Positions 5,728-61,329 of a stretch of DNA of 64,000 nt are shown here, one piece after another (positions within the stretch are counted from its first letter, which is position 1; every line of letters begins with the position of its first letter). Position numbers and translations under genes: made by a program. The stretch lies in NCBI RefSeq assembly GCF_004010195.1, contig NC_057756.1:2140020-2204019 (forward strand), written 5' to 3'. Below the pieces are notes generated by a model. It saw only the letters and a program-made list of their open reading frames with translations, did no database searches and was not told the DNA's origin. This DNA is from Chiloscyllium plagiosum. Lineage: Eukaryota.

Positions 5728-5769
5728 ATAGAATTTTCTATATCAACAGCATGTGTGATCATTTTATTA

Positions 5770-9535: not shown

Positions 9536-9856
9536 ATTAGATTAGATTAGATTACTTACAGTGTGGAAACAGGCCCTTCGGCCCAACAAGTCCACACCGA
9601 CCCGCCGAAGCGCAACCCACCCATTCCCCTACATTTTACCCCTTGACCTAACACTACGGGCAATTTAGCATGGCCAATTCACCTGACCTGCACATCTTTG
9701 GACTGTGGGAGGAAACCGGAGCACCCGGAGGAAACCCACGCAGACACGGGGAGAATGTGCAAACTCCACACAGTTCGTCGCCTGAGTCGGGAATTGAACC
9801 CGGGTCTCTGGCGCTGTGAGGCAGCAGTGCTAACCACTGTGCCACCGTGCCGCCCA
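9536..9856 (-). mobile_element. HE1-type V-SINE (tRNA head, V domain, CR1/HER1-derived tail), full length and young
   Basis: Minus strand starts GGGCGGCACGGTGGCACAGTGGTTAGCACTGC (box A) then GGTTCAATTCCC (box B); V-domain GTGTGGAGTTTGCACATTCTCCCCGTGTCTGCGTGGGTTTCCTCCGGG; (TAATC)n tail; candidate TSD CTTGTG at 9530-9535 and 9857-9862. Confidence 0.93.
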
Positions 9857-27171: not shown

Positions 27172-27185
27172 GTTTTCTCTTTTTT
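27172..27185 (-). promoter_or_regulatory. ERV polypurine tract
   Basis: Minus strand AAAAAAGAGAAAAC immediately precedes the TG of the 3' LTR. Confidence 0.7.
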
Positions 27186-27209
27186 GGTTATAGCAGGGTT
27201 GGAAATAGA

Positions 27210-28350: not shown

Positions 28351-28354
28351 CACT

Positions 28355-29450: not shown

Positions 29451-29574
29451 AGGAGGGGTTATGTTTAGTTATAGAAGATTGGAGTAAGGCAGGAATGCAG
29501 TGCATGCAGAACTCCTCCCATCCAGTCCGTGCAATCTATATTGAGGGGTATATGTCTAGCTCAAGGGGGGTGAA

Positions 29575-29870
29575 ATGTCATGGTGGCAGCACGAATCGCA
29601 CTATCATGGTTGCTAGACCTCTGGGGAGCCACGGGTTCTTAATAATAAGGGAAATGTGTGGGACCACCATTGGATCTTTGTAAGCCAGCACAGACTTCTC
29701 TGTGTTGAGTTGGACTTCTGTTGCAACACACTGCGGTCCAACAAATTTTGCGCCAGTGATCATTAGTGGGGAGGTAAGTTCGAGATCTGAGCCTGTGAGG
29801 GCAGCATATGTTACTGCTCGTTCCTACGGGCCAGAAGCTGCACAGTAAAGTTGACAAAAAAGTGACCAGT
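29575..29870 (-). pseudogene. 2H-phosphoesterase-like domain between ERV protease and RT
   Basis: ORF 29578..29763 FVGPQCVATEVQL..VPHISLIIKNPWLPRGLATM has an HxS motif at 29647-29661; position matches the 2H domain of piscine epsilon-type retroviral polyproteins; first HxT motif not recognisable. Confidence 0.6.
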
Positions 29871-29999
29871 CAGTATCACCAGCTGGAAAAAGGACAACGT
29901 TGTGTATTAAGGGAAGTTTGATAGCATGGAGAGGAGAGGTTCAAGAAGTGCACGGGTAGGTTCTGGCGTGCAGAACCGGGTGTAGCAAGTGATGCCTGG

Positions 30000-30370
30000 T
30001 CAGGGGACTCTGGGCTGTGGGGGATGGCTACCCACAGCACAGAAGTGTTTGCTTCCAGGATATCAAGTGTGAGTCATTGGGTGAAGCAGTGAACACTGGC
30101 ATTTAACTTGCACAGCGTCTAGCGACCCAGGAGGGCTAGTTGGCTGGAGGCAGAGATGTTCACAGCGCCTGCGACTGTGGCAGATCCCGCGCTGAAATTC
30201 ATGGGATGGGGAAGGTGATTCACCTTCTGAATTCCTGAAGCCTCCATGGTTCGGACTGTTTTGGAGTTCAAGGATAGTTCCATTGAGGAAGCTGCACACG
30301 AATGGGCAGCCTCAGGCTTCACCAGGAAAGAAATGAACTGCCCCCCCAACCTCGACATCCACCATAGGAT
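30000..30370 (-). pseudogene. pro: ERV aspartic protease, active site decayed
   Basis: PMVDVEVGGQFISFLVKPEAAHS (one frameshift; cf. FLVDTGA.HS) and SKTVRTMEASG flap region. Confidence 0.8.
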
Positions 30371-30581
30371 TTTCGGACGGAGAATCTGGGGTGGGGAGGT
30401 GGGGGTGCGGATTGAAACCGTCTGCGGAGCATCCCTCCTGCAGCAGCACGAATTCGGTTCTTGGTTATGGGAAAAGGGGCTTGTCGTTGTATGTGCAGCC
30501 TGACGAAGCTGCCACTTGGGGCTGTGCACTGTCTCGTAGGTCGGGAGGGTTTTAGAGTTTTGAGAGCGTCTGGGCGACCTG

Positions 30582-32015
30582 TCAAGCTCCTGACCTACAC
30601 TCCTTAGCCCAATGTCCCACTCTTACACAGTTCCAGCATTGCGCCCTCTGGACCATTGTGGTGGCCTGGTGTTGTGTGACTGGTGGCATGGTTTGGTAAT
30701 CGGAGGCAACATCGCTTTCTGGCTGAGAGTGGGAGACAGATGATTCCTGTCTGGGTTGTTCAATATCGTTAATGGTGTTCCCTCCATCCATTCCATTGTT
30801 TCCAAGGAAATGTTGGGAAAATTATGTATTTGGTCATAAGCAAGCAAAATGCAGTTTACCGGGGCTTTTACTGTATGTTATTGATTTTCGAACAACGGAA
30901 TGCATGCTGAACAATTCAAGACGTCATTAAAACGAGCTATAAAATTTGGTAAGGATTTGTGTTGTTTCTCAGACATCGAGTTATAGCACCAAAATTGGCA
31001 TGCTGCCTGGCACTGGCTTTTACGTCCTCTTTTCCAGTATTGTTCACCCAGTGCTCTCAGTCCTGACTGCGTCCTAGGATGAGGGAGGGAATTCTATGGC
31101 GGAACGAACAATTTCCCAGTGGGATCCGTTTGCTAGTTGCAGCAGGTTGTGTCAATCTTGGGGCGGGCAATTATGGATGACTGAAATTTACACTGTCTAA
31201 TTATGGAATGGCATTGGCCTTTTTAGGAGGTCTGGGTCGTCCAGCAGAATTGTTTGGACCTATGCAGGCCTCCAAAGATTTTCCATGAATGTGGAACAGA
31301 TCATGATGTGTGTGATTTGATGGTCTGTGCCCTGTTGGTTTTGGGCAGCAGCGTCAGCTACATTGCCGGTAATTATGATTTTTTTGTGCTGTCTAGCCGC
31401 GGTTTAGAATTGGGCCACGCTGTGGACCTTGTGTCCTGCTGCGACCCCTCCTGGGGCTGGTGGTACCCAAATCTGCAACATGCTGTAGCACAGTGTCTTA
31501 TTTTGGAGGGGCAAGTGGTGGTTTGGAGTACTGTGGGGCAGAGGGCGATGGAGACGCGACTAGGGTTTGTGGGGGCGGGGGGGTCCGTTCTAAGGGGCTC
31601 TAGCGACAAACCTTCCCATTAGGGGGCTGATGCCACTCTGCAACTTCCCTGAATTTTCCGAGAAACTGCAGCATGTAGGCACGGTCCCAGGAGAGGTTCA
31701 TATTCCCTCACGCACTGGCCATGGTCCAGTAGTCATATTTTTTTCAAAATTGATGGACCCCCATATGACCATTTGCCTTTGGACTGGTTGTGCAGGTCCC
31801 CAGTGACGGGGATACCATTTCAGCTGTCCCCTGTTTCTTTGAGCAATGTGTCTGCCGGGGACTGAGGTGTTTGTAAGGAGATCTCCAACATCTGTCTTGA
31901 AGATAACGTATTTACCGTGCCTTTTAAACATCTTCTTTCTCCATCGTTGGCAGCTGTGATCCGTTGTTCTCACGCAGCTGGGGCATCGATGTGCCCAAGG
32001 ATGGCAGTCCCCCAC
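30582..32015 (-). pseudogene. gag: ERV gag, fragmented
   Basis: CWNCVRVGHWAKEC zinc knuckle (CX2CX4HX4C) in ORF 30582..30791; MHR-like KQHKSLPNFIARF near 30930-30970; Pro-rich segment near 31550-31610; start position uncertain. Confidence 0.8.
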
Positions 32016-32726
32016 AGAGGGTGAATTACTGTGCTCGCATGTTGTAAAGTGGCTTTTGAGTTGAGCTTACAGGTATTTATCGTGACTTTCGTGGAATGCA
32101 GTGAATGCATCTGCCTCCAGACAGCCCAGCTCTCAGTCATCTTTCTATAAGTAAACAATAAAAACCAGGACAAGTTAATTACTGACTGCAACGTAAACAA
32201 CCTCTTGGCTGCTGGGTTAAGATAGTCTACAAGTCCAGGCAGAGGAATGCTCCTAAAACCATTCACGCACTCAACGATAAAGCACAGGAAACATTATCAA
32301 ACCACAAAACAAGCGCTTGAAAACCACAAGCATGCAAACCAGGAGACAAGCAAAAATACCTGTACCTATTGCCCTTTGTCAATTTCCCCATTCTTTCAAT
32401 TGATAACCAAGAACTTTATTCTGATCTCTCCCTTTGTCTCTCTGGGAACACCTGATGCTCAGTCATATGACAGGTCTGCTTAAATGGGTCCAATTTGGGT
32501 ATAATTTGTGAGCACATCGGCATGCTGCTCGAGCAAGCAAATCAGCTCAGTGCTCACATGATGCTGCAGTAGATTGAAATTGTGGCTACTTTCCCTAGAC
32601 TTTCAAGCTTTTGTACGTATGAAAAGTTGAGGCAAAGCTAGCCACTAGGTCCAAATTGTGCGAAATTTAAAATGTTACGTTTGCTTACCCTGTTGAGAGA
32701 AAAGGGGCTAACGATTAAAGCCAAAC

Positions 32727-33423
32727 TGTTGGAGTATTCAGGCCAATTGTTGAGAGACCACAAACGAGGGTTGTTGTGAAATTGACAAGTGGCTTATTGA
32801 ACAAAACAACACCGTGGAAGTGAAATTAACAATGCTGACACAGAACTGATTCTTTGAAGTGATGATTAAATGCTGTCGGAGTGCAAGTTAATCAAACACT
32901 TGACAGCAGCAATTCAAAAGGAATTTGCACAGGAAATTTCAGTAATCTCCGTGACTGTGTGAGAATGTCTTCTAGTGGATTCTTCATTGTATTTCCCTTC
33001 CACGCGTATATGTATAACTGTTCCTCCTCCTGGCATTCAGGTATGTCCATGGTGTTCTGCCTGTGATTGAACCTTTCGGTCATTGATTGAAGTCTTTGGA
33101 TTTCTCGGTCTGCCTCTTTGCTTATGTGATATCAGTTTCAATGTGAAAGGGCCCCAAAGTAGTTTGTTGGGAGTGCAGTGGTAATCTGGGCTGAGGACTA
33201 ATTGCGAAATCTGTTTTAACAATTGTAGTTTTTTTCTGGTCTGGGTGTGGCTTAGCCATACGTTTGATTTGTGTTACCTTATTTGGCCAAGAGTGGACCA
33301 TTCTTGGTAGTTTCTGTATGTGTTGGTCGGATTGATTTCTGAGTTTTACCTGCTAGCTTCTGTGTTTTTTTTTTAACGTGGCTATGCTTTGGATGAGCAG
33401 GGTGGCAGATCTTTTTTCCCACA
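32727..33423 (-). repeat. ERV 5' LTR
   Basis: Direct repeat of 26403-27171; ends tgttggag and ttcccaca; followed on the minus strand by GTT-TGGC, a degenerate PBS whose tRNA I cannot assign. Confidence 0.9.
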
Positions 33424-34694
33424 TATAGACATTCACAGGAATTTTAGAGAGCTGCTGGCAGTAAGTTTTGTCTGTGTTGATCCATTGGCTTTTGTCCCAC
33501 CAGATATGTCTGTATCCAATTCAGACCAAGGAGACAGCTTATCGCCAACACGTCTTCATTTTGAAAACTCTGGATGACTTTGGTGGATGTCAGTAGCTAT
33601 CTGGCAGGAACCTCTGTTCGGAACTGTCAGTCATCCTCACCATAACAATATATCATTCTCTGCTGTGAGCTAATTCTACCCGATCCAAAATATTTTGAAG
33701 TCCGATTGTCCTCGTGTTTTGTTTTGTAACCAACAGTTTTGCCAGGTCTTGTTACATTTAAAGTCGGATACTACCAGCTGTGAGTGGAAGTGTGCGCAGA
33801 TTTCTTTTTATATTATGGGCAATTCCAGTGGCGGTACAAATGCTGGTGATTACTTGCCATTGGAAGGCGGGTCAATGCATCCACATTTACTACTTGACCT
33901 CCAAGACGTTGTTCCTACTTGTAATTAAATGGACTTTGTATGAGCGGCCTCTGTTGAATTCGGGCTATATCTGTGCGCAGAACTTATCCTCTTTATGTAG
34001 ACATCGCAGGAGCTTGAGTTCTGTTGTTATTATAAATTGACATCTATAAATGTATTGGTGAAACATTGTGATTCAAAACATTACCAACATACTCTATCTG
34101 GACGTAATTACACTCTGTATTAGCTACAATCCTGGATGAATATGCCTCTTTTGTATCCTTTCCGATGGCCATCTATGAGGTAAACCCACTCCAAATATAT
34201 TTAGGAATGCAGCACATGTCATACCAGATATTCCTTGAGATCATCCTGTGTCCAAAACCTCAGAGTATGTTTCTAAACGTCCCTGCAGCCACTGGCGTTC
34301 CAAGGCGAACATTTCCAAGTGGGCCTTGTTTAAGAGTTTATTCAAATGTATTAAGATGGAGCCCAGCTAATGCATGAAATTTCCAGTATAAATTGCCAAC
34401 CAAAGGAATGGCTTAGATCACACAGATGTGCGAGCCGGAGCATCTTTGATAACTGTCACTTTAACGTCGAATGGGTGTTACAGATTGACTCAGTAGATCA
34501 GCTTGGTGAGATGAGGCGCTTGGAACTCACAGTTTTCATTTTAATGTGTATGACCACGTCAAAGGACTATGCCCAAATTACCTATGAGGTCTTAACTGTA
34601 ATACACTACTATTCCCACGTCATGTGGATAAATTGTGACTAGGAGTGGCACTGTAAAATGTTCTGAAAAATCAACAGGCCAATGATCCTCAAAA

Positions 34695-35184
34695 CTGAAA
34701 ATATGTTGCTGGAAAAGCGCACCAGGTCAGACAGCATCCAAGGAACAGGAGAATCGACGTTTCGGGCATAAGCCCTTCTTCAGGAAACATTATTAAACCA
34801 CAAAACAAGCGCTTGAAAACCACAAGCATGCAAACCAGGAGACAAGCAAAAATACCTGTACCTATTGCCCTTCGTCAATTTCCCCAATCTTTCAATTTAT
34901 AAGCAAGAACTTAATTCTGATCTCTCCCTTTGTCTCTCTGGGAACACCTGATGCTCAGTCATGTGAGAGGTCTGCCTAAATGGGTCCAATTTGGGTATAC
35001 TTTGTGAGCACATCAGCATGCTGCTTGAGCAAGCAAATCAGCTCAGTGCTTCCTAACCTGCAATCTTCTTCCTGGCCTGAAACGTCGATTCTCCTGTTCC
35101 TTGGATGCTGCCTGACCTGCTGCGCTTTTCCAGCAACACATTTTTAGCTCTGATCTCCAGCATCTGCAGTCCTCACTTTCTCCT
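34695..35184. mobile_element. Penelope-end inverted-repeat insertion enclosing a 270-bp copy of the ERV leader; 15-bp TSD
   Basis: TSD CAATGATCCTCAAAA at 34680-34694 and 35185-35199; inverted pLTR arms at about 34695-34786 and 35070-35184; 34781-35050 matches 32285-32554 with 12 mismatches. Confidence 0.92.
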
Positions 35185-36303
35185 CAATGATCCTCAAAAG
35201 GCAGTCTCTTATATTGGTATCAATCTTTATGAATATCAAATGCAGCATCCAGCTAGGGATGCTAATCTAACTGGACCTGCTAGTACAATTAGCTCATCTT
35301 AATCTTCATGAATGGCAGTTCAACTGCCACCTTCGTGTATAAATCCTTCTTGCAAGCAATTGCAGATTTATACAAATGAAGAAAGTGATTTCCCGTTTGT
35401 TTAATATACCCACAAGTGGGAAGCAAAGCATTGGACTTCTCAGTTGGTACGACTGATGCTGCAAATTCTGCAAACTGGTCTGGGTTGTAGATTCATTCAC
35501 TTGCCAAACTTTTAATTTTACCTCTATTTTTGACAGTGTGACAAGTGTCTAGACTTACTGAATTGTGGACTTGCTTCCTGGTCAACATACACCATGATCT
35601 TGGTTCCTTTGATAGTTCCTGGATCTTCTTCAATTTCTTTCAAGTATTTTATTCGGACTTTAATCAGGCAGTTGGTTTCTTCTCAAAAAAAGACCAATTC
35701 TCGGTGAAACTTTCTCAACCAATTTCACCTCCTTCAGATTGGTCCTAGCCTTTTCCTTCAAACGAGCTGCTTCTTAAAAGAACTAAACTTCTACCCATTA
35801 ATAGTGCAAGTTTGCCAGTATAGTTTCTCAGTTCAGATAAGTTTTTGTGCAAATTTCATCGTTAGAGTACAGAGCAAAATATGTAAAAACTGGGTCGTCT
35901 ATTAGCAAATCGAACACTATTAGAAGCTCGTCACTTTTCAACCAGATTTTCATTGATTCTGATTTGAAGGTTGCTAAGGAATTTAAATGCTTGAAAACCA
36001 AATTTACGTGAACGTTCCCGGGTGCATACTGTCCTGGGCCTGGAAGTATTGTTACTCGATTCAAGGTCGCATACTGGCAGCAACTGCAATGACTAACCCT
36101 CCTGGATCCTCAAGAATATTTTAACCAATTGGCTGAGGCTTAACTTTCTTTTGGGGTTTTGATGCAGGCTGACCTAAAATCACATTGGTCAACCCATGCC
36201 TCGTGCGAGGAAATGCTCTTGCCTTCATTCCAATGGTCCATTCTAATTAATAAAATGGCCGAATGGATCTTCGGAGGGTTGGTCTGCATTTCTTGGGCCG
36301 AAT

Positions 36304-36400
36304 GTTTAGATCAGAGTGTTGCTGGAAAAGCACAGTAGGTCAGGCAGCATCCGAGGAGCAGGAAAGTCTACGTTTCAGTCAAAAGCCTTAATCAGGAATG
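36304..36400 (-). mobile_element. Penelope-end fragment nested in a CR1/HE1-type tail
   Basis: gctggaaaagcacagtaggtcaggcagcatccgaggagcaggaaagtc..aatcaggaatg splits the tail sequence gggccgaatg / gcctgtttctacac. Confidence 0.75.
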
Positions 36401-37969: not shown

Positions 37970-40900
37970 GGTTATTGAACGTTGCACCATTATTCAAGAA
38001 CAGCTGCTTTGAGAAACCTGGGAACTATAGAGAAGTAATTCTGACATTTATGTTAAGTTTAATTATTTGAGGAGATTCTGAGTGAGAAAACATACATGCA
38101 TTTGTAAAGACATAAGCCCTCCGTTACTTCCTCTCCCGACGTCTCCAACAGTACCCTTCCACTGACACTCTCATTCGTTTGGCTGAGCTGGTCCTCACGC
38201 TTAACAATTTCTCCTTCGAATCCTCCCACTTCCTCAGACCAAAGGGGAAGCCATGGGCACCCGTATAGGCCACAGGTATGCCTGTCTCTTTGTTGGCTAC
38301 GTAAAACAGTGCATCTTCTGTAATTACACGGGTACCACTACCCACCTCTTCGCCCGCTACATTGACGATGGCATTGGCGCCACCTTGTGCTCCCGCGAGG
38401 AGGTTGAGCAATTCATGAGATTCACTAACACATTCCACCCTGAACTTAAATTTACCTGGACCATTTCTGACACCTCTCTCCCCTTCCGGGACTTCTCCAT
38501 CTCCATTAATGACGACCGACTTGACACTGACATTTTTTACAAACACACCGACGCCCACAGCTACCTGGATACACATCTTCCCACCATACCTCCTGCAAAA
38601 ATGCCATCCCGTATTCCCAATTCCTCCGCCTCCGCCGTATCTGCTCCCAGACGAACCAGTTTCAATACAGAACACTCCTGATGGCCTCCTTCTTTAGAGG
38701 TCGCAATTTCCCTTCCCACGTGGTTAAAGATGCCCTCAAACTCATGTCGTCCATATCCCGCACTCCGCCCTCAGACTCCACCCCTCCAACCGTAACAAGG
38801 ACAGAACGCCCCGGTGCTCATTTTCCATCCTACTAACCTTCGCATAAACCAAACCAACCGCCGACATTTCCGCAACCTCCAAACGGACCCCACTACCAGA
38901 CATATATTTCCCTCCCCAGACTTTTCCGCCTTCCACAAAGACCGTTCTGTCTGCAAAATACCTAATCAGGTCCATGCACCCCTACAACCCACCCTCCCGT
39001 CCTGGCACCTTCCCCTGCCACAGCAGGAATTGCAAAACCTGCGCCCACACCTCTTCTCTCACCTCCATCCAAGGCCCTAAAGGAGCCTTCCACATCCATC
39101 AAAGTTTTACCTACACATCCACCAATATCATTTATTGCATCCGTTGCTCCCTATATGGTCTCCTCTACATTGGGGAGACTGGACGCCTCTTGCAGAGCGC
39201 TTTAGGGAACATCTCAGGGTCACCCGCACCAATCAACCACACCGCCCTGTGGCCCAACATTTCAAGTCCCACACCCACTCAGCCGAGGACATGGAGGTCC
39301 TGGGCCTCCTTTACTGCTGCTCCCTCACCACCAAATGCCTGGAGGAAGAACGCCTCATCTTCCGCCTTGAACGCTTCAACCCCAGGGCATCAATGTGGAC
39401 TTCAACAGTTTCCTAATTTCCCCTTCCCCCACCTCACGCCAGTTCCAAACTTCCAGCTCAGCACTGTCCCCATGACTTGTCTTACCTGCCGATCTTCTTT
39501 TCCACCTATCCACTCCAACCCCCCCGACCTATCACCTGCATCCCCTCCTCAACTCACCTATTGTACTCTATGCTACTTTCTCCCTACCCCACCCTCCCCT
39601 CATTTATCTCCACCCTTCAGGCTCGCTGACTGTCTTCCGAATGAAGGGCTTTGCCTGAAACATCGATTTTACTGCTTCTCCGATGCTGTCTGAACTACTG
39701 TGCTTTTCCAGCACCATTCTAATCTAGAATCTGGTTTCCAGCATTTTGCTTTTTTTACCTTGGGAAGAAGCAGTCAGCAGGGCTTTGTGTATGGGAGACC
39801 ATGCCTCACAATTGTTTAGAGTTCTTTAGTGAAGTGACCAGGAAAGTGTGCAAAGGGAGGCCGGTAAACATAATCTGTGCAGATTTCTGTAACGTCATTG
39901 ATAATTTTCCTCATGGTAGGCTGCTCTGGACGATAAGATCACATGGAATCCGGGGAACCTGGAAAATTGATTTACACAATTAGTCTGATATTAGGAAGCA
40001 GATGTTAATAACGGAAGGTCTGTAGCTATTGGAGTGTGTTAGGGGTAAGTGCTTGACCAGTGCCTGTTTGTTATCTATATCAATGACTTCGATGAGAATG
40101 TGCAATACATGATCAGTGTGAGTGTAAGCGACTCTAATATAAGCGTGGGCAGGGAGGAAGGTAATCACCAAATGCAAACGTACATTTATTAGCTGGTGAG
40201 GTGGGCCGAGAAATGCCAAATTGAGTTTAACATAGACAAATATGAGGATAACATTTTGAAAAGTCGAATCAAAACAGCAGTGTTATCGTGAATTATAGAT
40301 CCTTAAGGAGTATAGTGGAACAGAGGGATCTCAGAGTTCAGATACAGGGCTCACTGAAATTGAGGTCACACGTTGACAGCGTAGTCAAGAAGCGTTTTTT
40401 CACACTGGCCTTCATCAGTCAGAGTAAAAATGTTTGGAACTTATGTTACAGTTGTACATGACACTGGTGAGGCTCCTCTTGTAGTATTGTGTTCAGGTTT
40501 GGTTACCATGCTAATGGAAGGATGTTATTTAACAGTAAACAGTTCAGAAGAAATTTACAAGAATGCTGGCAGGACTCGAGTGCCTGAGTTACCGGAAGAG
40601 GTTAGCCAAGCCAAAACCATTTTTCTTTTGGAGCGCAGTAAACTGATTTGGAATTTTGTTGAATTGTACAAAGTTAAGAGTGACATGGATAGTACGAATA
40701 CTCGGACTTGGCGAATCGATTTCAAGAGGGCATCACGTTGAAGTTAGATGGGGAAGAATAAAGAGGGTACTGCGGGGTTTTTTTAACACAGAGAGTGGTA
40801 CCCATATGGATTGAACTGTCAATGGAAGTGGTTGCGCTGGGCACATTAAGAAAATTTAAACGGCTTTTGGATAAGCCGATGAATGAAAAAGGTTTAGAAG

Positions 40901-47000: not shown

Positions 47001-47339
47001 GCCAACTGTGAGCCTATCCGTTTTCTGCACAGAAAGCCAACAGCATCTCCACTTCAGTAATTTTTGCATGTACGAGCAATGGCAACCCCTGGCGCATAAG
47101 TTACTCTTTCTAACTCAATCAATCTTCGCTTCATTCTTTTCCTTTACAGGTATAAATTCTGTGAACTATGTTGTCTACAGAGATGCTGATCAAAGAGATG
47201 CAGTGTTGTGGTATTGCATCAGCATGGCATCTGCCCATCCATCAGGTTAATTCTATGTATATGTACCCGTATTGTAGACCTGCAAAAAAGCTATGTCTTC
47301 AATTTCTTCTAAAACCAACCCGAATCCCTCTGCATTCCA

Positions 47340-47538
47340 GGTGAAAGTGAGAACTGCAGATTCTAGAGATTGGAATCGAGAGTGTGGTAATGAAAAAACA
47401 CAGCAGGCCAGGTAGCATCCGAGGAGCAGGGCAGCCTTCAATCTGGCAAAAAAAAACCTCGAATGAAAGTCGACTTTCCTGGTCCTCGGATGCTGCCTGA
47501 CCTGCCATGCCTCTCCAGCACCACTTTTTCTCAACTAT
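47340..47538. mobile_element. Older Penelope-end fold-back insertion with imperfect 12-bp TSD
   Basis: Inverted arms caggccaggtagcatccgaggagcagg and cctggtcctcggatgctgcctgacctg; flanks CTCTGCATTCCA (47328-47339) and CTCTGTATTCTA (47539-47550). Confidence 0.75.
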
Positions 47539-47559: not shown

Positions 47560-49725
47560 ACTACATTGCCGTGTTGAGGTGATTCAGAGTGTGGCGGTTT
47601 TGGTCGTTAGGAAACAATTTTGTAAAATATTCAAAATCCCAAGCAATGGCATCTACCCAAATTGCCCCCATCCTTCCTCGATGCATTTGACCTTGTTATA
47701 CTTTATTCGTAATATTTATTTCACTCCAGTGCACTGTCAAATACCGTATGGTTTCGACCCCTGTCCTCAAGTCTTAATGTTGACCCAGACCACAAGAAAA
47801 AATACCAACTTCTTTTTGGCCCAGTAATGTCATTGCCTGAAGGAAGAAATGAATCCTTAAAATTGGTAAAATGAGCCACATCTAATTTCATCACGCTATT
47901 GTTCCTGTGACAATTGTTTGAGGACTTAAGGTTTTGTGTTCACACGGAATTGGAGCCACTCCATTCCCTCCATACAGTCAGTCATTTTCCCATGGGTACA
48001 CCAATCGTAATTTCCAGGAAGTTGACAATGACCACCAATTCCCCCTGATTGTCTCTTCCTCTATTTTCTAACGTTGCATCAGCTTCCCGTGAAACTAGCA
48101 TAACTTATGCTCCTATTGACATCAGATTCTGTGACGTTCCTTAAGTTTGCCATGCCAATCTCCTCACATCCGACACACCCCCTCAGAACATTGAGGTCTG
48201 GTTTCTTCACTCCACCCTTTTCCCTCGGTCATTCAGATGGAGATTCGAAGTTGCATCCATTGTGTCTCCATTTCCTTTTCCTTTATGTTCATTTCCAATA
48301 CTGAGTCTGAGGAGTCCAGCTCAACTCTAAGGAATTTCGAAATAATATGCATCGGCTGTGTGTACATTTCGGTCATGTTTCTCTGGTCATACAATCCCCA
48401 AATTTTGGTTCTGAAAACAGTTCCACTCGAATCTCCCATAATCTGGGGGCATTCTTCTGACAAAGTGTGTAAAAGGTGATAATTATCCTATGCCCTCCAA
48501 ATATTTTTAGCTGGATAATATGATACCAGGCTCTCTTGTTAGGGGCTTTTAGCACCTTTATAAACTAATGGGCGTATCTAATCTAACATATGTTCCCGCA
48601 AATATCGTGGCCTGATGGATGCTTTTCGGTGCCCAGGCAACATCAAATGTTACAGCTTCCCCACCCCATGCCCCCCAACAGCTCTACTGTCTTCAAAATA
48701 GTATTACTTTGTTCTTTTCTATTTCTATATTATTTAAGGCCAGGTAATACACTTGTTTTACACAGTTAAGCATCTGCTATTTTCATTATTGCATCAACCT
48801 TTCTCTTGACCGTCCTAATACTACCTCCATGCCACGAATCTCTCGACCTGCAATCAAGCAACAACGGAATTCCTGTAGTGGAAGTTGCGGTGCTTTTTAC
48901 TGTAATCAGAATATAAGGAATTACCATCAATCAAATTGTACGTTGCTGATACACCATTTATTAAAATATATTTGTAATAAAAATGAAATAGCGTTCGCAA
49001 ACCACCCTCATGTCCAAATATATAAACATATGCAGAAAAATATAGAATTTTTAAAAAATGTCTATTTAACTAAATAAATAAAATATTAACATCAAACTAA
49101 TAAATAGTAATAACTCAGCGCAGCGAAACAAAACGCTCACATGATCGCAGCACCATTTAGGCCAAATTGTTTTTTTGTTTCAAAGTTCGATTTCCGTTTC
49201 ATCTTTCCACTGGATTTGGACCTATAGACTTTTTGGAACCTTTTTTCTATCCCTAGCCGTGTCATGACTTTTTGCATCACTTGTTCTGTAAAGTGTGTCC
49301 GTTGATCTGATTCATTACTCCTTGGTAAAGAGTAAAAGCTTTTTGCTAACTGGACATTCAGTGTTATTTTAACAGTGGCAGTTTCAGTGGGAAATGCATC
49401 TACCCATTTGCGAGGGTATACACTAACCACTTCTATCCTCTTGTCATTGGCATCTACCCAAATTACCCCCATCCTTCCTCGATGCATTTGACCTTGTTGT
49501 ATTTTATTCTTAATATTTTTTCCACTCCAGTAGAATCAAAATCTAATTCCCGATTTATTCAAGACCACTCTACCGGACTTATGTGTCTAAGCGCACATTG
49601 TTTTCACATTTTTAGGCTCTATTGTGGCAGCATATCAGAATTGTTTTCCACATAATGTTCCACGTACCTTTTCATTTGTGATTACTAACAAACATCCTTC
49701 AATAGTCAACCCCAGATCCTAACAG
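47560..49725 (-). pseudogene. Second retrovirus-like remnant: integrase followed by possible env-like sequence
   Basis: ORF 49137..49487 KWVDAFPT..LPRSNESDQRTHFTEQVMQ..LGI..YRSKSSG is a DDE core; ALRHISPVEWS.INRELDF lies upstream; KRAWYHIIQLK is C-terminal (ORF 48373); the downstream Cys/Trp-containing remnant (WYFSCGLG) is uncertain. Confidence 0.7.
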
Positions 49726-49729
49726 GACG

Positions 49730-50056
49730 ATTACATTACATTAAAGTTACATTACATTACAACGTGGAAACAGGCCCTTCGGCCCAACAAGTCCACACCG
49801 ACCGGCCGAAGCGCAACCCATCCATACCCCTACATTTACCCCATACCTAACACTACGGGCCGAGTATTAGCATTGCCAATTCACCTGACCTGCATATCTT
49901 TGGACTGTGGGAGGAAACCGGAGCACCCGGAGGAAACCCACGCAGACACAGGGAGAATGTGCAAACTCCACACAGTCAGTCGCCTGAGGCAGGAATTGAA
50001 CCCGGGTCTCTGGCGCTGTGAGGCAGCAGTGCTAACCACTGTGCCACCATGCCATC
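49730..50056 (-). mobile_element. HE1-type V-SINE, full length
   Basis: Near-identical to 9536-9856, with a (TAATG)n-type tail. Confidence 0.93.
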
Positions 50057-52131
50057 CACGTTAGCGAACTGAAGCTGGATGAACTTCAGATCTTTCACGT
50101 GTCTGAGGGGGTTATAAAGAGGAGCTATTTGGAGGTAGTTACACCTTTGATACAGTACAAATCTAGCTGGATGACCAACAGGAGAGGGAAAGGAAAAAGG
50201 CTGTCAATGCAGAGAACCCCTGTGGCCGTTCTCCTCCATAGTAAGTATACTGCTTCAGATATTGGTAATGAGGTCGACCTACTCGGAAGGAAACAACTGG
50301 TCAAGTTTCTGCTACTGAATGTAGCTCTGTTGCTCAGAAAGAAAGGCATGAGAAGAGAAAAGCGACAGTGATCGGAGATTGAGTTATTAAAGGAGCAAAC
50401 AGGAGACTGTGTGATCGCAGACAACACCCGAATTGTATGTTGCCTCAGGGGTGCCAGGTTCAGGGATGTGTCGTATCGAGCCAATAGGACTCTTAAGGAG
50501 GAAGTAAGCACCCAGAAGCTGTAGTGCACATTATTACCAATGTCACAGATAGGATAAAGTTTGAGGACTGGAATATTCAATACAGGGAGTTTGGATGGAA
50601 ACTAAAAGTACGACAGGCAGAGCAGCAATGTCAGGATTGCAACCGGTGCCACTGGCGAGTGAGACTAGGAATACACAGCGAGTGCAGCTCAAAACGTGGC
50701 TGCATAGTGGTGGAGGATGGAGGGCTTCAGATATGTTGATCATTAGTATACCCATCTAGAGAAGTTAGGAGATGTACAAGTGGACAGGTTGAACCTGAAC
50801 TGACGGGGTATCATATACGGGGTGAATGGTTTGGTAGACTTCTTCGGGAGGGTTTCGACTACTGTGGCAGGGGAATGGGTATGGGGGCTACGGATCAGCT
50901 GATGTGCAACCAGCATGAGAACCACCAGCAGACCTTCTGTGAGGAAGTAGAGAAAGTTGACAGGGCCGGGTTGCAAAATGTGTGAGGGATTGAAGTGTGT
51001 CTATTTTAATGCAAGACGTAAGAAACAAAGATGATGAACTTATCGCATGAATCATTACTTAAAGTTGTGGCTATTACAGAGACTTGTATACCAGAGGTGC
51101 AGAAATGTTTCCCGGATATTCCATGGTTTAGATTTTTAAAAACGAATAGGTAGAGAGCTAAAAGAGGTGGGTAGTGGGACTGTAAACACGTGATACCAAA
51201 TCGACTGCAGAAGGTGAGATCGTCGAGGTGTGTTTGTCTACAGAGCCAGATTTGGTGGAAGTCAGAAACAGGAAATGAGCATAACTTTGCTGCCAGTTTT
51301 AAATAGACCACCACATAGCAACAGAGACATGGAGAAACTGATTGTGAGGGAGATTTTGGAAAATGGCAGAAGTAATATGGTTGTTGTCAAGGATGACTTC
51401 AATTTCCATAGTAATAATTGAAACCTCTTTAGTCCAAATAGTTTGGAAAGAACAGACTATGACAGGTGCGTCCAAGAATTCCTCACTCAATATGTTCATT
51501 TGGCGGCAACAGGGAAGCCCGCCTTGGTTTTGCTGCTTTGTGATGGACCAGGGCATGTGTATGATCTCTTTTTGGGAGAGCCTTTCCAATATAGTGATCA
51601 CAACCCCCTGAGCATTAACATAATCACGGAGAGGGATTGGAGTAGAAGGTATAGGAATTGATTTAATTAGGAAAGGGGAAATTACAATACCATTTGGCAC
51701 AAACTGTGGAGCATAAAAAGGAAGCAGATATTCCCAGCGAAGTACACAACAGAATTGTGAATGTTGTTTAGTTAGGAATTGCTACGAGGAGACAGTGAGG
51801 TCTGCAGATGCTGGAGATCAAAGTTGAAACTTTATTGCTGGAACAGCACAGCAGGTCAGGCAGCATCCAGGGAACAGGAGATTCGACGTTTCGGGCACAG
51901 GCCCTTCTTCAGGAATGAGCAGAGAGTGTTCAGCAGGAGAAGATAAAAGGTAGGGAGGAGGGACTTGGAGGAGGGGAGTTGGAAATGTCTTCTTCTTGAC
52001 CTCTCCGCCTCCACCCTACTCCGACCTATCACCCTCACCTTGACCTCTTTCCACCTATCACATTTCCAACGCCCCTCCTCCAAGTCCCTCCTCCCTACCT
52101 TTTATCTTCTCCTGCTGAACACTCTCTGCTC

Positions 52132-52167
52132 ATTCCTGAAGAAGGGCCTGTGCCCGAAACGTCGAAT
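52132..52167 (+). ncRNA. Minimal type-I hammerhead ribozyme motif of the PLE pLTR (further copies: inverted at about 51881-51916, at about 5636-5669, inverted at about 34752-34786)
   Basis: ATTC-CTGAAGA-A-GGGC(CTGT)GCCC-GAAAC-GTC-GAAT gives stem I ATTC/GAAT, core CUGANGA plus one extra A, stem II, GAAA, loopless palindromic ACGT stem III and a GUC cleavage triplet. Confidence 0.65.
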
Positions 52168-53099
52168 CTCCTGTTCCCTGGATGCTGCCTGACCTGCTGT
52201 GCTGTTCCAGCAATAAAGTTTCAACTTTGATATCCAAATGAATCCAACAAGAACTGGACCAAGCATATGTGGTACTCATAATCTTCTTCATCCTAAGTAT
52301 ACGCATGATTTTACTACAACTGCTAAGTATTTCATCAGTAATATTTTCAGCAACATAACACAAAACATCGCAGATAAGAAAAACTGCAGCATATTAACAT
52401 GCCAAATTTCCCCTAAAGTAAATGCATTAAAATTCCATCAAATTTGACAATATTGTTATGTATTTGGCTTTAAGGGGTTAACACGTAGGGGGTTCCATAC
52501 AACAGCCAAGCAGGGTGAGATCAATAGTTGTGATGTTGAGAAGATATGCTCTTCTTCATTAGGGTAAATAAAACCACAGAAAGTAGACAAAATCAAACAC
52601 AAAATATTGCTGAGGAAAGGAGTGAACAAAGACAGAAATGGGAACTATTTAAATGTAAATCTATGATTCGCTCCAGTAATAATATCTAACAATATTCAAT
52701 ATCTAGGATCATACCAAAAGAGTACTTTGAAGTATTAAAGGGATTTTCTGCTATCTAGTGATCTCTGAGGCATGAAGTTTCCCTTTCTTGATATGTGCAA
52801 GATCAAGACAAACACTAGGCATACAGTAACAGTGATATCACCGCAGGGAGTTGGCAGCCAATTACACTGAAGTATTCTCAAACAGCAAATCAGAAAGTAA
52901 AATGCAGTAAAATCTTCTACTCAATTAAAATTTCCACAGAGTAAATACAAATCATCAGTGATACACATGGGATTAAAGTAGCTGAAATATCATAACTTTT
53001 TTTTAAATTTGAAAAAAACATTATTGCCATAATAATGGCAAAAAAGCATCCCAGTGATATAACATTAGATTTCTATGAGTAACTATTGAGTTATTAAAA

Positions 53100-53300
53100 T
53101 TAAATTGCATTTATATAGTAACTGTTATGGCCACAGAAAGATCCAAAATGCTTTACAGCCAATAAAGTACTTTGGAAGTACAGTCAGTGTTGACACATAG
53201 CAGGCAATTTACATGTAGCAAGCTCCCACAAAAAGAAATGCTGTACTAATTATTGAAAAAATATTGACTATGACACCTGGAACAACTTTCTCATCAGTGG
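53100..53300 (-). mobile_element. Old DeuSINE (SacSINE1-like) remnant inside the captured DNA
   Basis: ttgcatttatatag, gctttacagccaataaagtactttggaagt and agcaagctcccaca match the reverse complement of the Deu domain and tail. Confidence 0.7.
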
Positions 53301-53954
53301 TGAGGTTCTGGAACCCACGAGTTCAAAGGGTAATACAGGCAAAAACCATAATCACATTAAAACATGCGGTGGAACAGTCAATGGGTTTAGGAATGGGGTA
53401 GTCAGGTTTGTGGATTTTGGGCAGGAGGTAGAAACGGGCGGTGCGGGGTTGTGGGACTATGAGATTGGAGGCGGTGGATGGGAGGTCCCCTGAGGTGATG
53501 AGGTTATGGATGGAATTCCAGCAATTCCAGGAATTGCTACGAGTACTGCATGTTTTTGTCCCACTTAGACAAGGAATGAATTATAGGGCAAAGGGACTTT
53601 AGTTGACAAGAGATGTGGAAACTCTCGTCAAGAGGAAGGTGCAAGCTAACTTGAGGTCAAGGAAGCAAGGATCAGACAGGGCACCAAAGGGTTAAAAAGG
53701 AACCACGAAGGAAAGTATTTATCAGTAAGTTTCAAGTCGGGGTGGGCATTTTTTAAAAAAAGGATGCTGAGAGACGGGATTTATGTTTGTTTGGGAATGC
53801 ATAATTTGATTAGAGATAGTTTGCATGGCTTTGTGATGGGAAGGTCATACCTCATAAGGTTTTTTGAATAATTTGAGGATGTGACAAAATGCATTGATGA
53901 TAGTAGAATGGTATATGAGTTGTATATGGATTTTAAGAGGCACTTGTTACAGTT

Positions 53955-56900
53955 AGAACATAGAACATAGAACAGTACAGCACAGAACAGGCCTTTCAGC
54001 CCATGATGTTGTGCCGAACATTGATCCTCATGTGAGGTAAACCTAATGTACGAACCCTCAAATTTCTGTGACCATATGCATGTCCAGCAGTCTCTAAAAT
54101 ATCCCCACAACTGCTGCTGGCAACGCATTCCATGCTCTCACAAATCTCTGCGTGAAGAACCCGCCTCTGACATACCCTCTATACTTTCCGCCAAACAGCT
54201 TAAAACTATGACCTCTCGTGTGAACAATTTTTTTCCTGGGAAAAAGTTTCTGGCTATCAATTCCATATATGCCACTCATTATCTTGTACGCCCCAATTAT
54301 TTCCCCTCACTTCCTTCTTTTTTCTAATGAAAACAGTCCGAACTCAGTCAGCCTCTCTTCATAAGATAAGCCCTCCATTCCAGGCAGCATTCTGGTAAAC
54401 ATCCTCCGAAACTTCTCCAAAGCATCCACATCTTTCCTATAATGGGGCGACCAGAACTGGACACAGGATTCAAAGTGCCGTCCAACCAAAGTTTTTTTAG
54501 AGCTGCAACAAATCTCGCGGCTCTTAAACTCAATCCCCCTGTTAATGAAAGCCAAAACACCATATTCTTTCTTAACAACCTTGTCCACCTGGGCAGCAAT
54601 TTTAAGGGATCTATGTTCCACCACACTGCCAAGAATCCTGTATTTAACCGTGTACTCAACTTCACGTTTGACATTCCAAAATACATCACTTCGCAGTTAT
54701 CCAGGTTGAACTCCATCTGCTACCTCTCAGCCCATCTCTGCATCCTGTCAATATCACGCTGCAGCCTACAACAGTCCTCTACACTGTCAACGAGACCTCC
54801 AAACTTTGTGTCATCTGCAAACTTGTTAACCCATCCTTCAATCTCCTCATCCAAGTCATTAATAAATATTACAAAGAGTAGAGGCCAATGAACGGAGCCC
54901 TGTGGAACACCACTCACAACTGACTTTCAGGCAGAATATTTTCCTTCCACTACCACTCGCTGTCGACCAGCTAATTCTGTATCCAGACAGCTAAATTTCC
55001 CTGTATCCCATTCCTCCTGACCTTCTGAACGAGCCGACCATGGGGAACCTTATCAAATGCGTTGCTGAGGTCCATACACACCACATCTACCGCTCGACTC
55101 TCATTAACTTGTTTAGTACCATCCTCAAAGAACTCAATAAGATTTGTGAGGCATGAGCTGCCCCTCAAAAAGCAGTGCTGACTGCCTTTAATCAAGCCAT
55201 GCTCTTCCAGATGTTCATAAATCCTATCCCTCAGATTCCTTTCTAACACCTTGCAGACGACAGACGTGAGACTGACTGGTCTGTAATTTCCGGGAATTTC
55301 CCTCTTTCCTTTCTTGAAGAGAGGAATTACGTTTGCGTCCCTCCAGTCTTCAGGTACGACTTCGGTGGAGAGCGAGGATGCAAGGATCTTCCCAAGCGGC
55401 GAAGCAATCACATTTCTCGCTTCCTAAAGCAGCCGAGGACAAAGTTGATCTGCACTTGCGACTTGTTAATCTTAATGTTTGTCAAAAGTTTCAATGCATC
55501 AACTTCCTCAATCACTATCTGTTCCAGCATGCTTACCTGCCCCTCAATTCACTACAAGGTCATTTTCTTTAGTAAAGACACAAGCAAAAAAAACTCATTT
55601 AGGGTTTCCCCTATCTCCTCGACTCTATACACAAGTTCCATATGCTATCCCTGATCGGCCCTATTCTTTCTTTGATCATTATCTTATTCCTAACATACGT
55701 GTAAAATGCCTGTGAATTCTCCCTAATCCTTCCTGCCAAGCCTTTATTGTTCCCCCTCCTGGCTCCCTTCAGACCATTTTTGAGATCTTTCCTCGCCTGC
55801 CTGTCATCCTCTATAGCAGATCAAGACCCTTGCTTCCTCCAACTTACATAAGCTGCCTTCTTTCTTTTGACGAGAAGCTCCTCCGCTCTTGTCATCCAAG
55901 GTTCCTTTATATTACCCATTCTTGCCTGTCTCAGAAGAACACATTTGTGCATCACTCGCAACAACTGTTCCTTAAACAGTCTACACATGTCGAGAGTACC
56001 CTTTCCATGGAAGAATTGTTCCCAGTCCATGCTTCCCAACTCACGTCTGATAGTATCATATTTTCCTTTTCCCCAATTAAATATCCTCCCATTGTGCCTG
56101 CTTCTCTCCTTCTCCATATCTATGTAGAATGTGAGACAGTTATGGTCACTATCACCAAAATGCTCTCCCAGCGCAAGATCTGATAACTTCCCCAGCTCAT
56201 TGCCGAACACCAAATCCAAAATGACCTCTCCCCTCGTCGGCCTGTCAATGTATTCAGTTAGGAAACCCTCCTGAACACACCTTACAAAAACAGTTCCTTC
56301 CAAACCATCTGCTCGATGTAGGTTACAATCAATATTTGGAAATTTAAAGTCACCCATTACAACAACCCTACTACATTCACACTTTTCCAAACTCTGCCGA
56401 CCTATGCTTTCTTCAATCTCCCTGCAGCTATTGGGGGAGGGGGGGCGTTTTTAGTAAAGCCCTAATGAGGTGACTGCTCCCTTACTGTTCCTAATGTCCA
56501 CTCACACTGACTCAGTCGGCAGACCCTCCTCGACAATGGTAACTTCTGTAGCTGCGATACCCTCTCTGAATAGCAGTGCTACATCCCTCCTCTTTCCCCC
56601 CCTCCCTATTCTTTTTAAATGTTCTAAACCCTGGAACACCCAGCAACCATCCTGCCCCTGAGAAACCCACGTCTCTTTTATGGCCACAACATCATAGCAC
56701 CAAGTACTGATGTATGCTCTAAGCTCATCACTTTTATTCCAGATACTCCTTGCATTAAAGCAAACAAACTTTAACCGATCCCTTGGTTCTTTCCGAGGAA
56801 GTTCCTTCCCAGTGGTTGCGCTTCCTCTTGGTATTGCCACATCTCCATCAACTCTCACAACTGGTATAGAGCTCAGGTTCCCAACCCCCTGCCATACTAG

Positions 56901-57728: not shown

Positions 57729-60700
57729 AATAGACAATAGACAAAAGGTGCAGGAGTAGGCCATTCTGCCCTTCAAGCCAGCACCACTATTCATTATGAT
57801 CATGGCTGATCATCCGCAATCTGTATCCTGTTCCTGCCTTACTCCCATATCCCTTGATTCCATTATCCTTAAGAGCTCTATCCACCTCTTTCTTGAAACT
57901 ATCCAGAAATGTGGCCTCCACATCCTTCTGGGGCAGAGCATTTCATGCACCCACCACTCTCTGGGTGAAGAAGTTCTTGCTCAACTCTGTTTAAGTGACC
58001 TATCCCTTATTTTTAAACTGTGTCCTTTGGTTGGTTTGGGTCTCACCCATCAGCGGAAACATGTTTCCAGCCTCCAGAGTAACCAATACTTTAATAATCT
58101 TATACGTCTCAATCATATCCCCTCTTAGCCTTCTGAACTCAAGCGTATTCAAGCCCAGTCGCTCCAATCTTTCAGTGTAAGATAGTCCCGCCAATCCAGG
58201 AATCGACCTCTTGAAACTACGCTGCACTCCCTCAAAATCCCGAATGTCTTTCCTCAAATTTGGTGACCAATTCTGCGCACAATATTCCAGGTGTGGTCTC
58301 ACAAGGGCACTGTACAGCTGCAGAAGGACCTCTTTGCTTCTATACTCAATTCCTCCTGTTATAAAGGCCAGCGTGCTATTAGCTTTCTTCACTGCCTGTT
58401 GTACCTGCATGCTTGCTTTCATTGACTGATGCAGAAGAATACCGAGATCTCGCTGTACTGCCCCTTTACCTAACTTGACTCCATTTAGGTAGTAATCTCC
58501 CCTGTTTTTGCCACCAAAGTGGATAACCACACATTTATCAATAGTAAACTGCATCTGCCATGCATCCGTCCACTCACCCAGCCTGTCCAGGTCACTCTGT
58601 ATACTCCTAATATCCTCCTTACATTTCACCCTGCCACCTAGCTTTGTGTCGTCAGCAAATTTGTTAATATTACTTTTAATATCTTCATCTATATCATTAA
58701 TGTACATTACAAAAAGCTGCGGTCCCAGCACTGATTCCAATGGCACACCACTGGTCACCGCCTGCCATTCCAAAAGGGAGCAGTTTATCACTACTCTTTG
58801 TTCCCTGTCAGCCAGCCAATGTCCACTCCATGTCAGAATTTTGCCCCTAATACCATGTACACTAATTTTGATCACTAACCTCCTATGTGGGACTTTATCA
58901 CAGGCTTTCTGAAAGTCCAGGTATGCTACATCCACTGTATCTCCTTTGTCTATCTTCAGAGTTACATCCTCAATAAATTCCAGAAGATTAGTAAAGCATA
59001 ATGTTCCCTTCATAAATCCCTGCTGACTCTGACCTATCCTGTTACTGCTATCCAGATGTGTCGTAATTTCGTCCTTTATAATTGACTCCAGCAGTTTTCC
59101 CATCACTGAGGTCAGACTAACTGGTTGATAATTCTCTGTTTTCTCTCTCCCTCCTTTCTTAAAAAGTGGGACAACATTAACCACCCTCCAATACGCAGGA
59201 ACTGATCCTGAATCTTTAGAACATTGGACAATGATCACGAATGCACCCACGATTTCTAGAGCTACCTCCTTCAGTACATTGGGATGCAGACCATCAGGTC
59301 CCGTGGACGAATCAGACTTCAGACCTAACAGTCTCTCCAACACCATTTCCTACCTAATATAAATTCTCTTCAGTTCATGTCCTTCAGCCACTATTGCATC
59401 TGGGAGATTGCTCGTGCCTTCCCCAGTGAAGACAGATCTAAAGTACCAATTCATCTCTTCTGCCATTTCTTTGTTCCCGTGATAAATTCACCCGTTTCTG
59501 TCTTCAAGGGGCCAATTTTAGTCTTAACTACTTTGTTTTTCTTTTCACATACCGAAAAAAGCCTTTACTATGCTTCTTTACATTTTTGGCCAGTTTACCT
59601 TCGTACCTTATTTTTTCTTTGCATATTTCATTTTTAGTAAGCGTCTGTTGTGCTTTAAAAGCTTCCCGGTCCTCCAATTTCTCACTCATCTTTGCTATGC
59701 TATACTTTTTCCCTTTTGTCTTTATATGGTCCTTAAATTCCCTCGTCAGCCACAGCCAATCCCTCCCTCCCCTGAGGTTCTTTCTTCATTTTGGAATGAA
59801 CTGATCCTGTGTCTTCTGCATTATACCCAGAAAGACCTGCCATTGTTTTTACCGCTGCCATCCCTGCTAGGCTATTGCACCATTGATCTTTTACCAGATC
59901 CTCCCTCATAGCTCCATATTTTCCCTTATTCAACTGAAATATTGTCACTTCCGATTCTACCCTTTCCATTTCAAACTGCAGATTAAAGCTTATTGTATTG
60001 CGGTCACTACCTTCTAATGGCTCCTTTACTTCGAGGTCCCTGATCAAATCCGTTTCGTTGCCCAACACCAGATCCATAATTGCTTTCACCCTGGTAGGCT
60101 ACAGCACAAGCTGTTCTAAGAATCCATCTCGGTGGCACTCCACCATCTCCCTTTCTTGCGGTCCAGTACCATCTTGATTCTCCCAGACTACCTGCATGTT
60201 GAAATCCCCAAAACAACTGTAGTAATATCTTTGCAACAGGCCAATTTCAGCTCCTTATTCAACTTACACACTACATCCAGGCTACTGTTTGGGGGCCGGT
60301 AGATAACTCCCAGTAGGGTCTTTCTACCTTTCTAATTTCTCAGCTCTATCCATACTGACTCTACATCCCCTGATTCTAGGTCCCCCTGCGCAAGCGACTG
60401 CATATCATTCCTTACCAACGGGGCCATCCCACTCCTCTGCCAGTCAGTCTGTCCTTACGATAGCACGCATAGCTTTGAATATTCATTAACCAGACCCTAT
60501 CCACTTGAAGCCACGTCTCTGTTATCCCCTCAACATCGTAACTGCCAATTGCAAAATGAGCCTCAAGCTCATCTATCTTATTTCTAATGCTTCGTGCATT
60601 CATATATCATATTTTTAATTTGTTACTCCCCTCACCCTTCCTATCAATCCCTATTTCACTTGAACTTACGGCATGATCCTTTTATGAGTTTTCTGCTTCA

Positions 60701-60768: not shown

Positions 60769-61329
60769 GTTTGAGGGAGCTGGAGCCTTTCCCATTGGAG
60801 AGAGCAAGGATGAGGCGTGATTGTTGGAGGTGTGGAAGATGATGAGAGACATAGTTAGACTCATAGCGCTGAAATGGTTATCAAGAGTGGAAATAACTGT
60901 AAGATGTTTGGAAGTATATTTAAGGGACGTATCAGAGACGGATTATTTTTATTTTTTAGACAGGAAGTCGTGGATGCATGGAGGTCTTTTGCCAAAAACT
61001 TCGGTTTTCCTGCTTCTCAGATGCTGGCTGACCTACTGAGATTTTCCAGCAACACGCTATCCACTGATATACATTGGGGACAACTAAGCGACTCGCAGAT
61101 TGACACATAGATGCTAGTAATATGATGGGTGCGTTATTTAGAGTGATCGAAGAGTAGGATAAATGGTCAGGACAACAACATAGACCGAAGAGCTGCTAAT
61201 GTGTGGTACTGTTCTGTGTGCTAACATGTCCTAGGAGTTTTCCAACCCTTGGTTTTCAAAAATATCATCGTATCAATAGGTGATGTGATTCAGCTCTCTC
61301 TCTGCTCACGCAATTTTTCCTTCACAGTA

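Follow-up and report, generated by a model that had tools for sequence, protein, structure and literature searches.

A Penelope-like insertion enclosing non-element DNA within an old CR1 element of the shark Chiloscyllium plagiosum

How a single retroelement insertion comes to hold more than a kilobase of sequence that is not its own is the question raised by a short region in the genome of the shark Chiloscyllium plagiosum. The region lies in a 64,000-nucleotide stretch of contig NC_057756.1 (positions 2,140,020 – 2,204,019, forward strand; hereafter the window), where an old long interspersed nuclear element (LINE) of CR1 type is interrupted by pieces of a Penelope-like element (PLE). Enclosed by a target site duplication (TSD) are two inverted copies of the PLE terminal repeat (pseudo-long terminal repeat, pLTR), a stretch of DNA outside the element (the cargo), a fragment of the reverse transcriptase (RT) region and a short filler, arranged as follows:

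51774 – 51788, unstranded: left copy of the TSD (AGGAATTGCTACGAG, 15 bp)
51789 – 51816, minus strand: pLTR tail of 28 bp (31 bp counting the overlap with the TSD), on the tailed arm only
51817 – 51988, minus strand: tailed pLTR arm, 5'-truncated, with a hammerhead core (CTGAAGA-stem-GAAA) from 51912
51989 – 52231, plus strand: inverted tail-less pLTR arm, 243 bp, with a hammerhead core at 52136 and the end ...AACTTTGAT
52232 – 53394, unstranded: cargo of about 1.16 kb, of which the last ~30 bp could also belong to the RT piece
53395 – 53511, minus strand: PLE RT-region fragment of 117 bp (IHNLITSG...PKIHKPDYP)
53512 – 53528, unstranded: filler of 17 bp, the last 9 bases being AGCAATTCC
53529 – 53543, unstranded: right copy of the TSD, 15 bp
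50735 – 53960, plus strand: old CR1-type LINE, the target of the insertion

That these parts belong to one insertion is indicated first by the target. The two TSD copies are identical at 15 of 15 positions, as the initial annotation of this DNA had stated, and the last three bases of the left copy (GAG) also match the 3' end of the PLE. Among 4974 random window pairs of the same size, only one shared 15 or more bases; that pair shared 40 and is probably a repeat copy. With one TSD copy retained, the alignment of the host CR1 to a second CR1 copy in the window runs gap-free through the site (overall identity 753/1219, 62%), which bears out the colinearity claimed earlier; the empty state is seen in this paralogous CR1 of the window only. 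Just to the right of the insertion, at 53690 – 53740, the host CR1 is short by ~500 bp relative to the other copy, probably an old deletion unrelated to the insertion.

The tail and tailed arm together make up 200 bp of the PLE terminal repeat. Inverted pairing extends over 172 bp (51817 – 51988 against 52060 – 52231) with one mismatch, exactly as annotated, while the annotated extent of the inverted pLTR has to be enlarged: the 71 bp between the paired arms align to the 3' region of an older PLE at 39.5 kb, and because this 'loop' is also PLE the inverted repeat measures 243 bp rather than 172. In both arms a pattern scan of our own found a minimal hammerhead core whose stem II is 4 bp long, a predicted ribozyme of a kind known from PLE repeats (PMC4209133); the Rfam scan gave no match at the gathering score for any family, hammerhead included.

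The RT fragment comprises 37 stop-free codons with 76 – 92% identity to 23 proteins matched (of 27 candidates), confirming the PLE assignment made earlier. The species-named matches, 6 of the 23, are from Stegostoma, Chiloscyllium or Heterodontus, and the fragment corresponds approximately to residues 253 – 291 of the Chiloscyllium protein P0008. It shares the orientation of the tailed arm and looks undecayed, having no stop and four CpG in 119 bases (observed/expected ratio, o/e, 0.77). Its frame is broken off after PKIHKPDYP, where shark proteins go on with GRPIVSACSC or a variant. A PLE protein scan of metagenome contigs retained 80 of 129 loci (28 – 65% identity in the best segment, all distant), and these carry an RPI/RPV motif after PKxHK in 75 of the 80, exactly where the copy in the insertion stops; they set the RT boundary, and have no match to the cargo or the arms. 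Protein alignments (n = 23) end at 53395 in 6 cases and continue weakly to 53347 – 53362 in 13, the others ending at 53386 (2), 53440 (1) and 53224 (1), while DNA matches to the related loci reach 53394 at most. The firm boundary between RT and cargo is accordingly placed at 53395, with 53362 – 53394 ambiguous, which explains the earlier boundary of 53370. No convincing local template for 53362 – 53394 was found in the window. The feature by which the Neptune clade is recognised (PMC3846280) is present in the older relative at 38.1 – 39.7 kb and in related loci L001 and L005, and falls outside the truncated insertion. The PLE-type RT, the pLTR with an inverted truncated copy and one-sided tail, the TSD and the hammerhead motif are all features of endonuclease-containing (EN+) PLEs, and a single PLE-made insertion enclosing non-element DNA is well supported.

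What, then, is the enclosed DNA? The cargo is AT-rich, as first described (GC 0.34, within the lowest 3% of the window), and its CpG o/e of 0.21 is the lowest among 315 overlapping 1161-base windows; on these two values it stands apart from its surroundings and would resemble host DNA that has long been methylated. Its longest stop-free frame is 71 codons. No second copy was found in the 64-kb window, that is within 51 kb to the left and 10 kb to the right: nhmmer returned nothing, and three weak, short blastn matches (E 0.002 – 0.6) were judged to be chance. Two of the three findings named in the initial annotation as refuting its reading do not hold. No direct repeat of 5 bases or more is common to both cargo edges, and the cargo thus lacks a TSD of its own; nor is it an internal part of the autonomous element, as it replaces the tail at one end, a tail common to the tailed copies at 51.8, 5.5, 35.1 and 47.3 kb, and interrupts the RT frame at the other. 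The cargo seems to be ordinary non-coding DNA from elsewhere in the genome, and its description as foreign stands on window absence and composition rather than on a mapped donor. The stretch at ~53130 – 53290 may resemble a shark short interspersed nuclear element (SINE), for which the SacSINE1 label of the initial annotation is putative; this piece has no second copy in the 64-kb window. The cargo starts with ATCCAAATGAATCC, joined directly to the end of the tail-less arm, and its first bases, ATCCA, are similar to the start of the tail, CTCCA, as are the target flanks at 5.7 and 34.7 kb.

The far joint carries the 17-bp filler, which was missing from the initial annotation. Its last 9 bases repeat the neighbouring TSD sequence in inverted form. 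Only 9 of 63940 window positions show an inverted match of 9 bases on the two sides of a point, which ties the far joint to the CR1 target and argues against a chimera; misassembly is unlikely. Polymerase-theta end joining leaves templated inverted insertions of this type, in which a short inverted copy of break-flanking sequence sits at the joint (PMC11292364); the model accounts for the 17-bp filler only, and polymerase theta would be one candidate for the enzyme that acted. The filler also has 10 bases in common with the pLTR, a 10-mer that occurs at an unrelated place too, and its origin may be mixed. The far end of the insertion is closed by repair, unlike that of plain hairpin insertions, where the second arm runs up to the TSD.

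Other PLE copies of the window supply the comparison needed to interpret this arrangement, above all the following:

34680 – 35199, plus strand: second PLE insertion with cargo, 15-bp TSD CAATGATCCTCAAAA, consisting of a tail-less inverted arm, a 270-bp filler and a tailed arm
34781 – 35050: the 270-bp filler between the arms of this insertion
32285 – 32554, plus strand: likely local donor of the 270-bp filler
5502 – 5741, minus strand: plain hairpin insertion without cargo, of the same young subfamily as that at 51.8 kb, 14-bp TSD ATAGAATTTTCTAT

The insertion at 34.7 kb, which was not listed in the initial annotation, belongs to an older subfamily than that at 51.8 kb and is the better documented capture. 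Its filler and the sequence at 32285 – 32554 are identical at 258 of 270 positions (96%), gap-free, on the same strand and 2.5 kb apart, and the edges of the latter show neither PLE nor TSD; the donor may itself belong to a repeat that is present elsewhere as well. The filler starts in an 8-base overlap with the arm, CAGGAAAC, while for the ~17 bases at the other joint (35051 – 35068) a local template was sought and none was convincing. In the clean hairpins at 5.5 and 34.7 kb the tail-less end directly abuts the TSD, and arm pairs of the young subfamily show 0 – 2 differences over 81 – 115 bases. The TSD of the 5.5-kb hairpin is a near-palindrome, and its arms meet at the hammerhead. An older, frameshifted and 5'-truncated PLE at 38116 – 39750 retains RT, a Cys-rich linker, a GIY-YIG-like motif and the 3' repeat. 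Further old pLTR stubs lie at 36307 – 36400, 47339 – 47530 and 60978 – 61058; the stub at 47.3 – 47.5 kb is what is left of a hairpin and probably has a 12-bp TSD (2 mismatches). PLE stubs occur at 7 loci of the window.

How the cargo arrived can be approached through the position of its left joint. Measured against a 118-base reference for the repeat end, the joint between repeat and cargo falls at position 87. The other tail-less ends lie at ~79 – 92 in five of six cases, the sixth, an old copy, being at 96 (positions in old copies are approximate, one being placed by eye), and the other tailed ends lie at 117 – 118 in 3 of 3. Because the joint sits at the tail-less terminus of the family, stub and cargo may be a pre-existing block, and we give about an even chance to the reading that the repeat and its cargo were copied together from an earlier tail-less PLE stub with its flank. 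The filler of the 34.7-kb insertion sits midway between its arms, where two cDNAs, one primed from each target end, would meet; that position fits priming from both ends, in which case the tail-less end is a primed end as well and the left edge of the cargo would once have been a PLE target flank. For an anole PLE in vitro, both strands were cut and extended, with two adjacent RT start sites defining the tail (PMC11167929). At 51.8 kb the tail-less end adjoins cargo, not TSD. The tailed arm and the RT piece follow one another with the same polarity and in the same order as on the element RNA; together with the stop-free, CpG-bearing state of the RT piece, this makes the element's own RNA the simplest apparent source of both.

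The sequence of events under block copying would be as follows. A Neptune-like Penelope element cut the old CR1 with a 15-base stagger and cDNA was primed at the tail site, as seen from the TSD, the tail and the colinear target. After 200 bases, synthesis would have shifted to a template from a distant locus, where a tail-less stub of the same subfamily lay beside host DNA, and stub and ~1.16 kb of flank would have been copied as a single block. The 117 bases of RT region would then have been added, most simply by a return to the element's own RNA, and host end joining would have sealed the far end, with the observed filler templated by the target site. Three templates could serve. One is a host transcript in which the stub lies in antisense; another is donor DNA, entered by strand invasion at the 172-base homology; the third is RNA read through a whole donor hairpin, that is a 5' transduction as reportedly found with SVA source elements. 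All three predict a donor in which tail-less repeat and cargo are already joined, with a tail-less pLTR ending in ...AACTTTGAT straight before ATCCAAATGAATCC, the reverse of the PLE-free donor expected in the initial annotation. The 5'-transduction form further predicts a donor hairpin with the inversion joint GGAAATGT/CTTCTTCTTG and a 14 – 15-bp TSD starting ATCCAAATG that is repeated past the tail. An RNA template would predict a sense transcript corresponding to the minus strand of the window; no host gene by which to orient it appeared in a Pfam scan of 300 window frames. Block copying would need 1 – 2 switches at the CR1 site and not at least three into arbitrary DNA. Of the earlier claim of three or more template switches in one event, the three joints are borne out; the location of one of them at the tail-less terminus would allow repeat and cargo to have been joined beforehand, and not every joint need be a template switch of the same event.

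Several points weigh against block copying. The donor is absent from the 64-kb window, and contiguity of stub and cargo is a prediction drawn from sequence; the repeat-end positions come from 10 ends in a single window, and the CpG count of the RT piece from just 119 bases. Tail-less ends would also result from a fold-back arm followed by endonuclease trimming (PMC3846280, PMC8557442), or from priming by a second RT subunit at a distant DNA end during the same event. The read-through form has difficulties of its own, as its RNA would fold into a 172-bp hairpin (-375 kcal/mol). No editing signature was found in the arms, whose sole mismatch is not of the A-to-G type; this is a weak argument, since editing marks were present in only 3 of 235 L1 retrocopies (PMC11702581). 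Moreover, the anole protein required RNA downstream of the start sites (PMC11167929), which truncated copies lack. Forms of block copying that start on genuine element RNA and cross to the donor through homology escape these read-through problems.

A fresh capture of PLE-free host DNA in a single event is the main rival to block copying, though a less probable one. It could have taken the form of one cDNA with three template switches, or of a loose 1.16-kb genomic fragment whose 3' ends were both extended by the PLE RT, at the tail-less site on one end and at a CCCC run of the RT region on the other, before being patched into the target. The three internal joints with short or imperfect homology are in line with this, as are the arms free of editing marks and the 34.7-kb insertion, which took its DNA from a PLE-free local donor; L1 insertions likewise can draw on several sources and can include templated genomic pieces or flap fragments that bear priming marks of their own (PMC11702581), and the fold-back model cited above also gives tail-less ends (PMC3846280, PMC8557442). 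Against it, a random switch need not hit the tail-less terminus, which spans ~12 of the 240 or more bases of an arm, the locally borrowed filler of the window sits between arms and not outside them, and the cargo was not met with in the 51 kb to the left or the 10 kb to the right. If instead the insertion were a 5'-truncated member of an amplified non-autonomous composite, with PLE ends and a fixed cargo, its joints would have been made once, earlier and elsewhere. Rotifer pLTRs do suffice in cis for mobilisation (PMC3846280), yet no further copies were present in 64 kb, which is a weak test, and this origin seems improbable.

Less probable still, and to be given very little weight, is the idea that the cargo entered an existing PLE copy afterwards, as a repair patch or a nested insertion: the cargo edges share no direct repeat of 5 bases or more, and what remains once the cargo is taken out is no intact element, the tail-less end then adjoining an RT piece of opposite orientation. 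An assembly chimera at the hairpin repeat deserves equally little credence. Inverted PLE structures are a known source of trouble in assemblies (PMC8557442), but the exact TSD, the gap-free CR1 empty site, the TSD-copied filler and the lack of any N in the window all speak for a genuine junction.

The insertion carries ~2 private changes in some 370 comparable bases and is far younger than the CR1 in which it lies; it can be called recent, as it was at first, only in that relative sense. At 7e-10 mutations per base per generation, a rate borrowed from another species, the epaulette shark (PMC10587355), a single genuine change since the insertion would already imply a very large number of generations, and a fixed insertion would therefore refute nothing. 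The private changes may instead be RT errors or source variants.

In the window as a whole, CR1-type LINEs and PLEs are abundant, as are decayed pieces of LTR type. The Pfam scan covered 300 of the 308 stop-free frames of at least 62 codons, a length that short exons would escape, and gave RVT_1 (3 frames) and zf-CCHC (1 frame) above the curated cut-off; seven matches lay below it, including RVT_1 and rve, five of which were taken as chance. The longest open frame, a CR1/L2-type RT (RVT_1) of 449 stop-free codons, is at 58003 – 59349 (minus strand). A decayed LTR/retrovirus-like region occupies ~26400 – 33400 (minus strand), with a zinc knuckle at 30585 – 30821 (Pfam) and two diverged copies at 26.4 – 27.2 and 32.7 – 33.4 kb (65 – 76%); within it, a frame at 28683 – 29174 and a stretch at 27579 – 27965, neither with a Pfam match, would be RT-like and env-like, respectively. 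A weak integrase (rve) match under the Pfam cut-off lies at 49140 – 49535 (minus strand). An 87-bp direct repeat (92%) is present at 47644 – 47730 and 49445 – 49531, 1.8 kb apart, one copy overlapping the rve match, and a 325-bp repeat, probably a SINE, has two copies (92%) at 9536 – 9857 and 49735 – 50059. The single tandem repeat array of the window is unrelated to the insertion. The pLTR motifs had no matches in metagenome contigs or in viral contigs.

The 51.8-kb insertion is a single dead non-coding copy with no evident function, and its interest lies in what it may record. The later steps of PLE integration are described as still unvalidated (PMC11167929), and composite insertions preserve traces of them, namely the origin of the inverted arm and of the tail: a filler at the centre of the arms favours two-ended priming, and cargo outside the arms raises the question whether old stubs act as entry points. 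It is a tentative and rather doubtful proposition that the shark PLE RT can leave its own RNA, enter any pLTR stub by homology, copy at least 1 kb of flank and return. If it were true, the density of stubs (7 loci in 64 kb) would leave hardly an intron or exon of the genome far from an entry point, and PLEs would provide genome-wide copy-and-paste of host DNA distinct from both L1 3' transduction and two-pLTR capture.

PLE capture of host DNA is already known, and the suggestion that the family is a vehicle for such DNA, made plausible by the second case at 34.7 kb, is not new. In the rotifer Adineta vaga, host DNA is mobilised with Penelope terminal repeats (Arkhipova, Yushenova and Rodriguez 2013, PMC3846280), and non-element DNA occurs in one TSD-bounded unit with direct and inverted pLTRs, as in the shark. 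Unique spacers of 0.9 – 1.5 kb in Pen1 are ascribed to host capture, and solo pLTRs with TSDs enclose captured non-coding DNA. What differs here is the geometry. The rotifer cargo lies between pLTRs, while in the shark it is found beyond the inverted pair, with an internal RT fragment and the repair filler at its far end; the shark insertion also carries no gene, unlike the rotifer case. No description of shark PLE cargo or of such a geometry was found in the literature searched, which did not extend to subscription journals or Repbase, and the available portions of PMC9977147 and bioRxiv 10.64898/2026.07.22.740005 hold nothing on cargo. Compared with the standard EN+ PLE insertion, in which a 5'-truncated copy adjoins an inverted copy and a one-sided tail of 30 – 40 bp is present (Craig et al. 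2021, PMC8557442; Frangieh et al. 2024, PMC11167929), the shark insertion has the expected truncated tailed arm, inverted tail-less arm, tail (28 – 31 bp) and hammerhead core, and departs from the standard in the 1.3 kb of cargo, RT piece and filler that part the tail-less end from the TSD. Non-canonical L1 insertions, whose repertoire includes multi-source insertions, templated genomic DNA and twin priming, are alike in having several templates per TSD, microhomology joints and host end joining at the far end (PMC11702581). The shark PLE differs from them in lacking poly(A), in its GIY-YIG/telomerase-like machinery with internal priming, and in that the inverted piece is a second terminal repeat.

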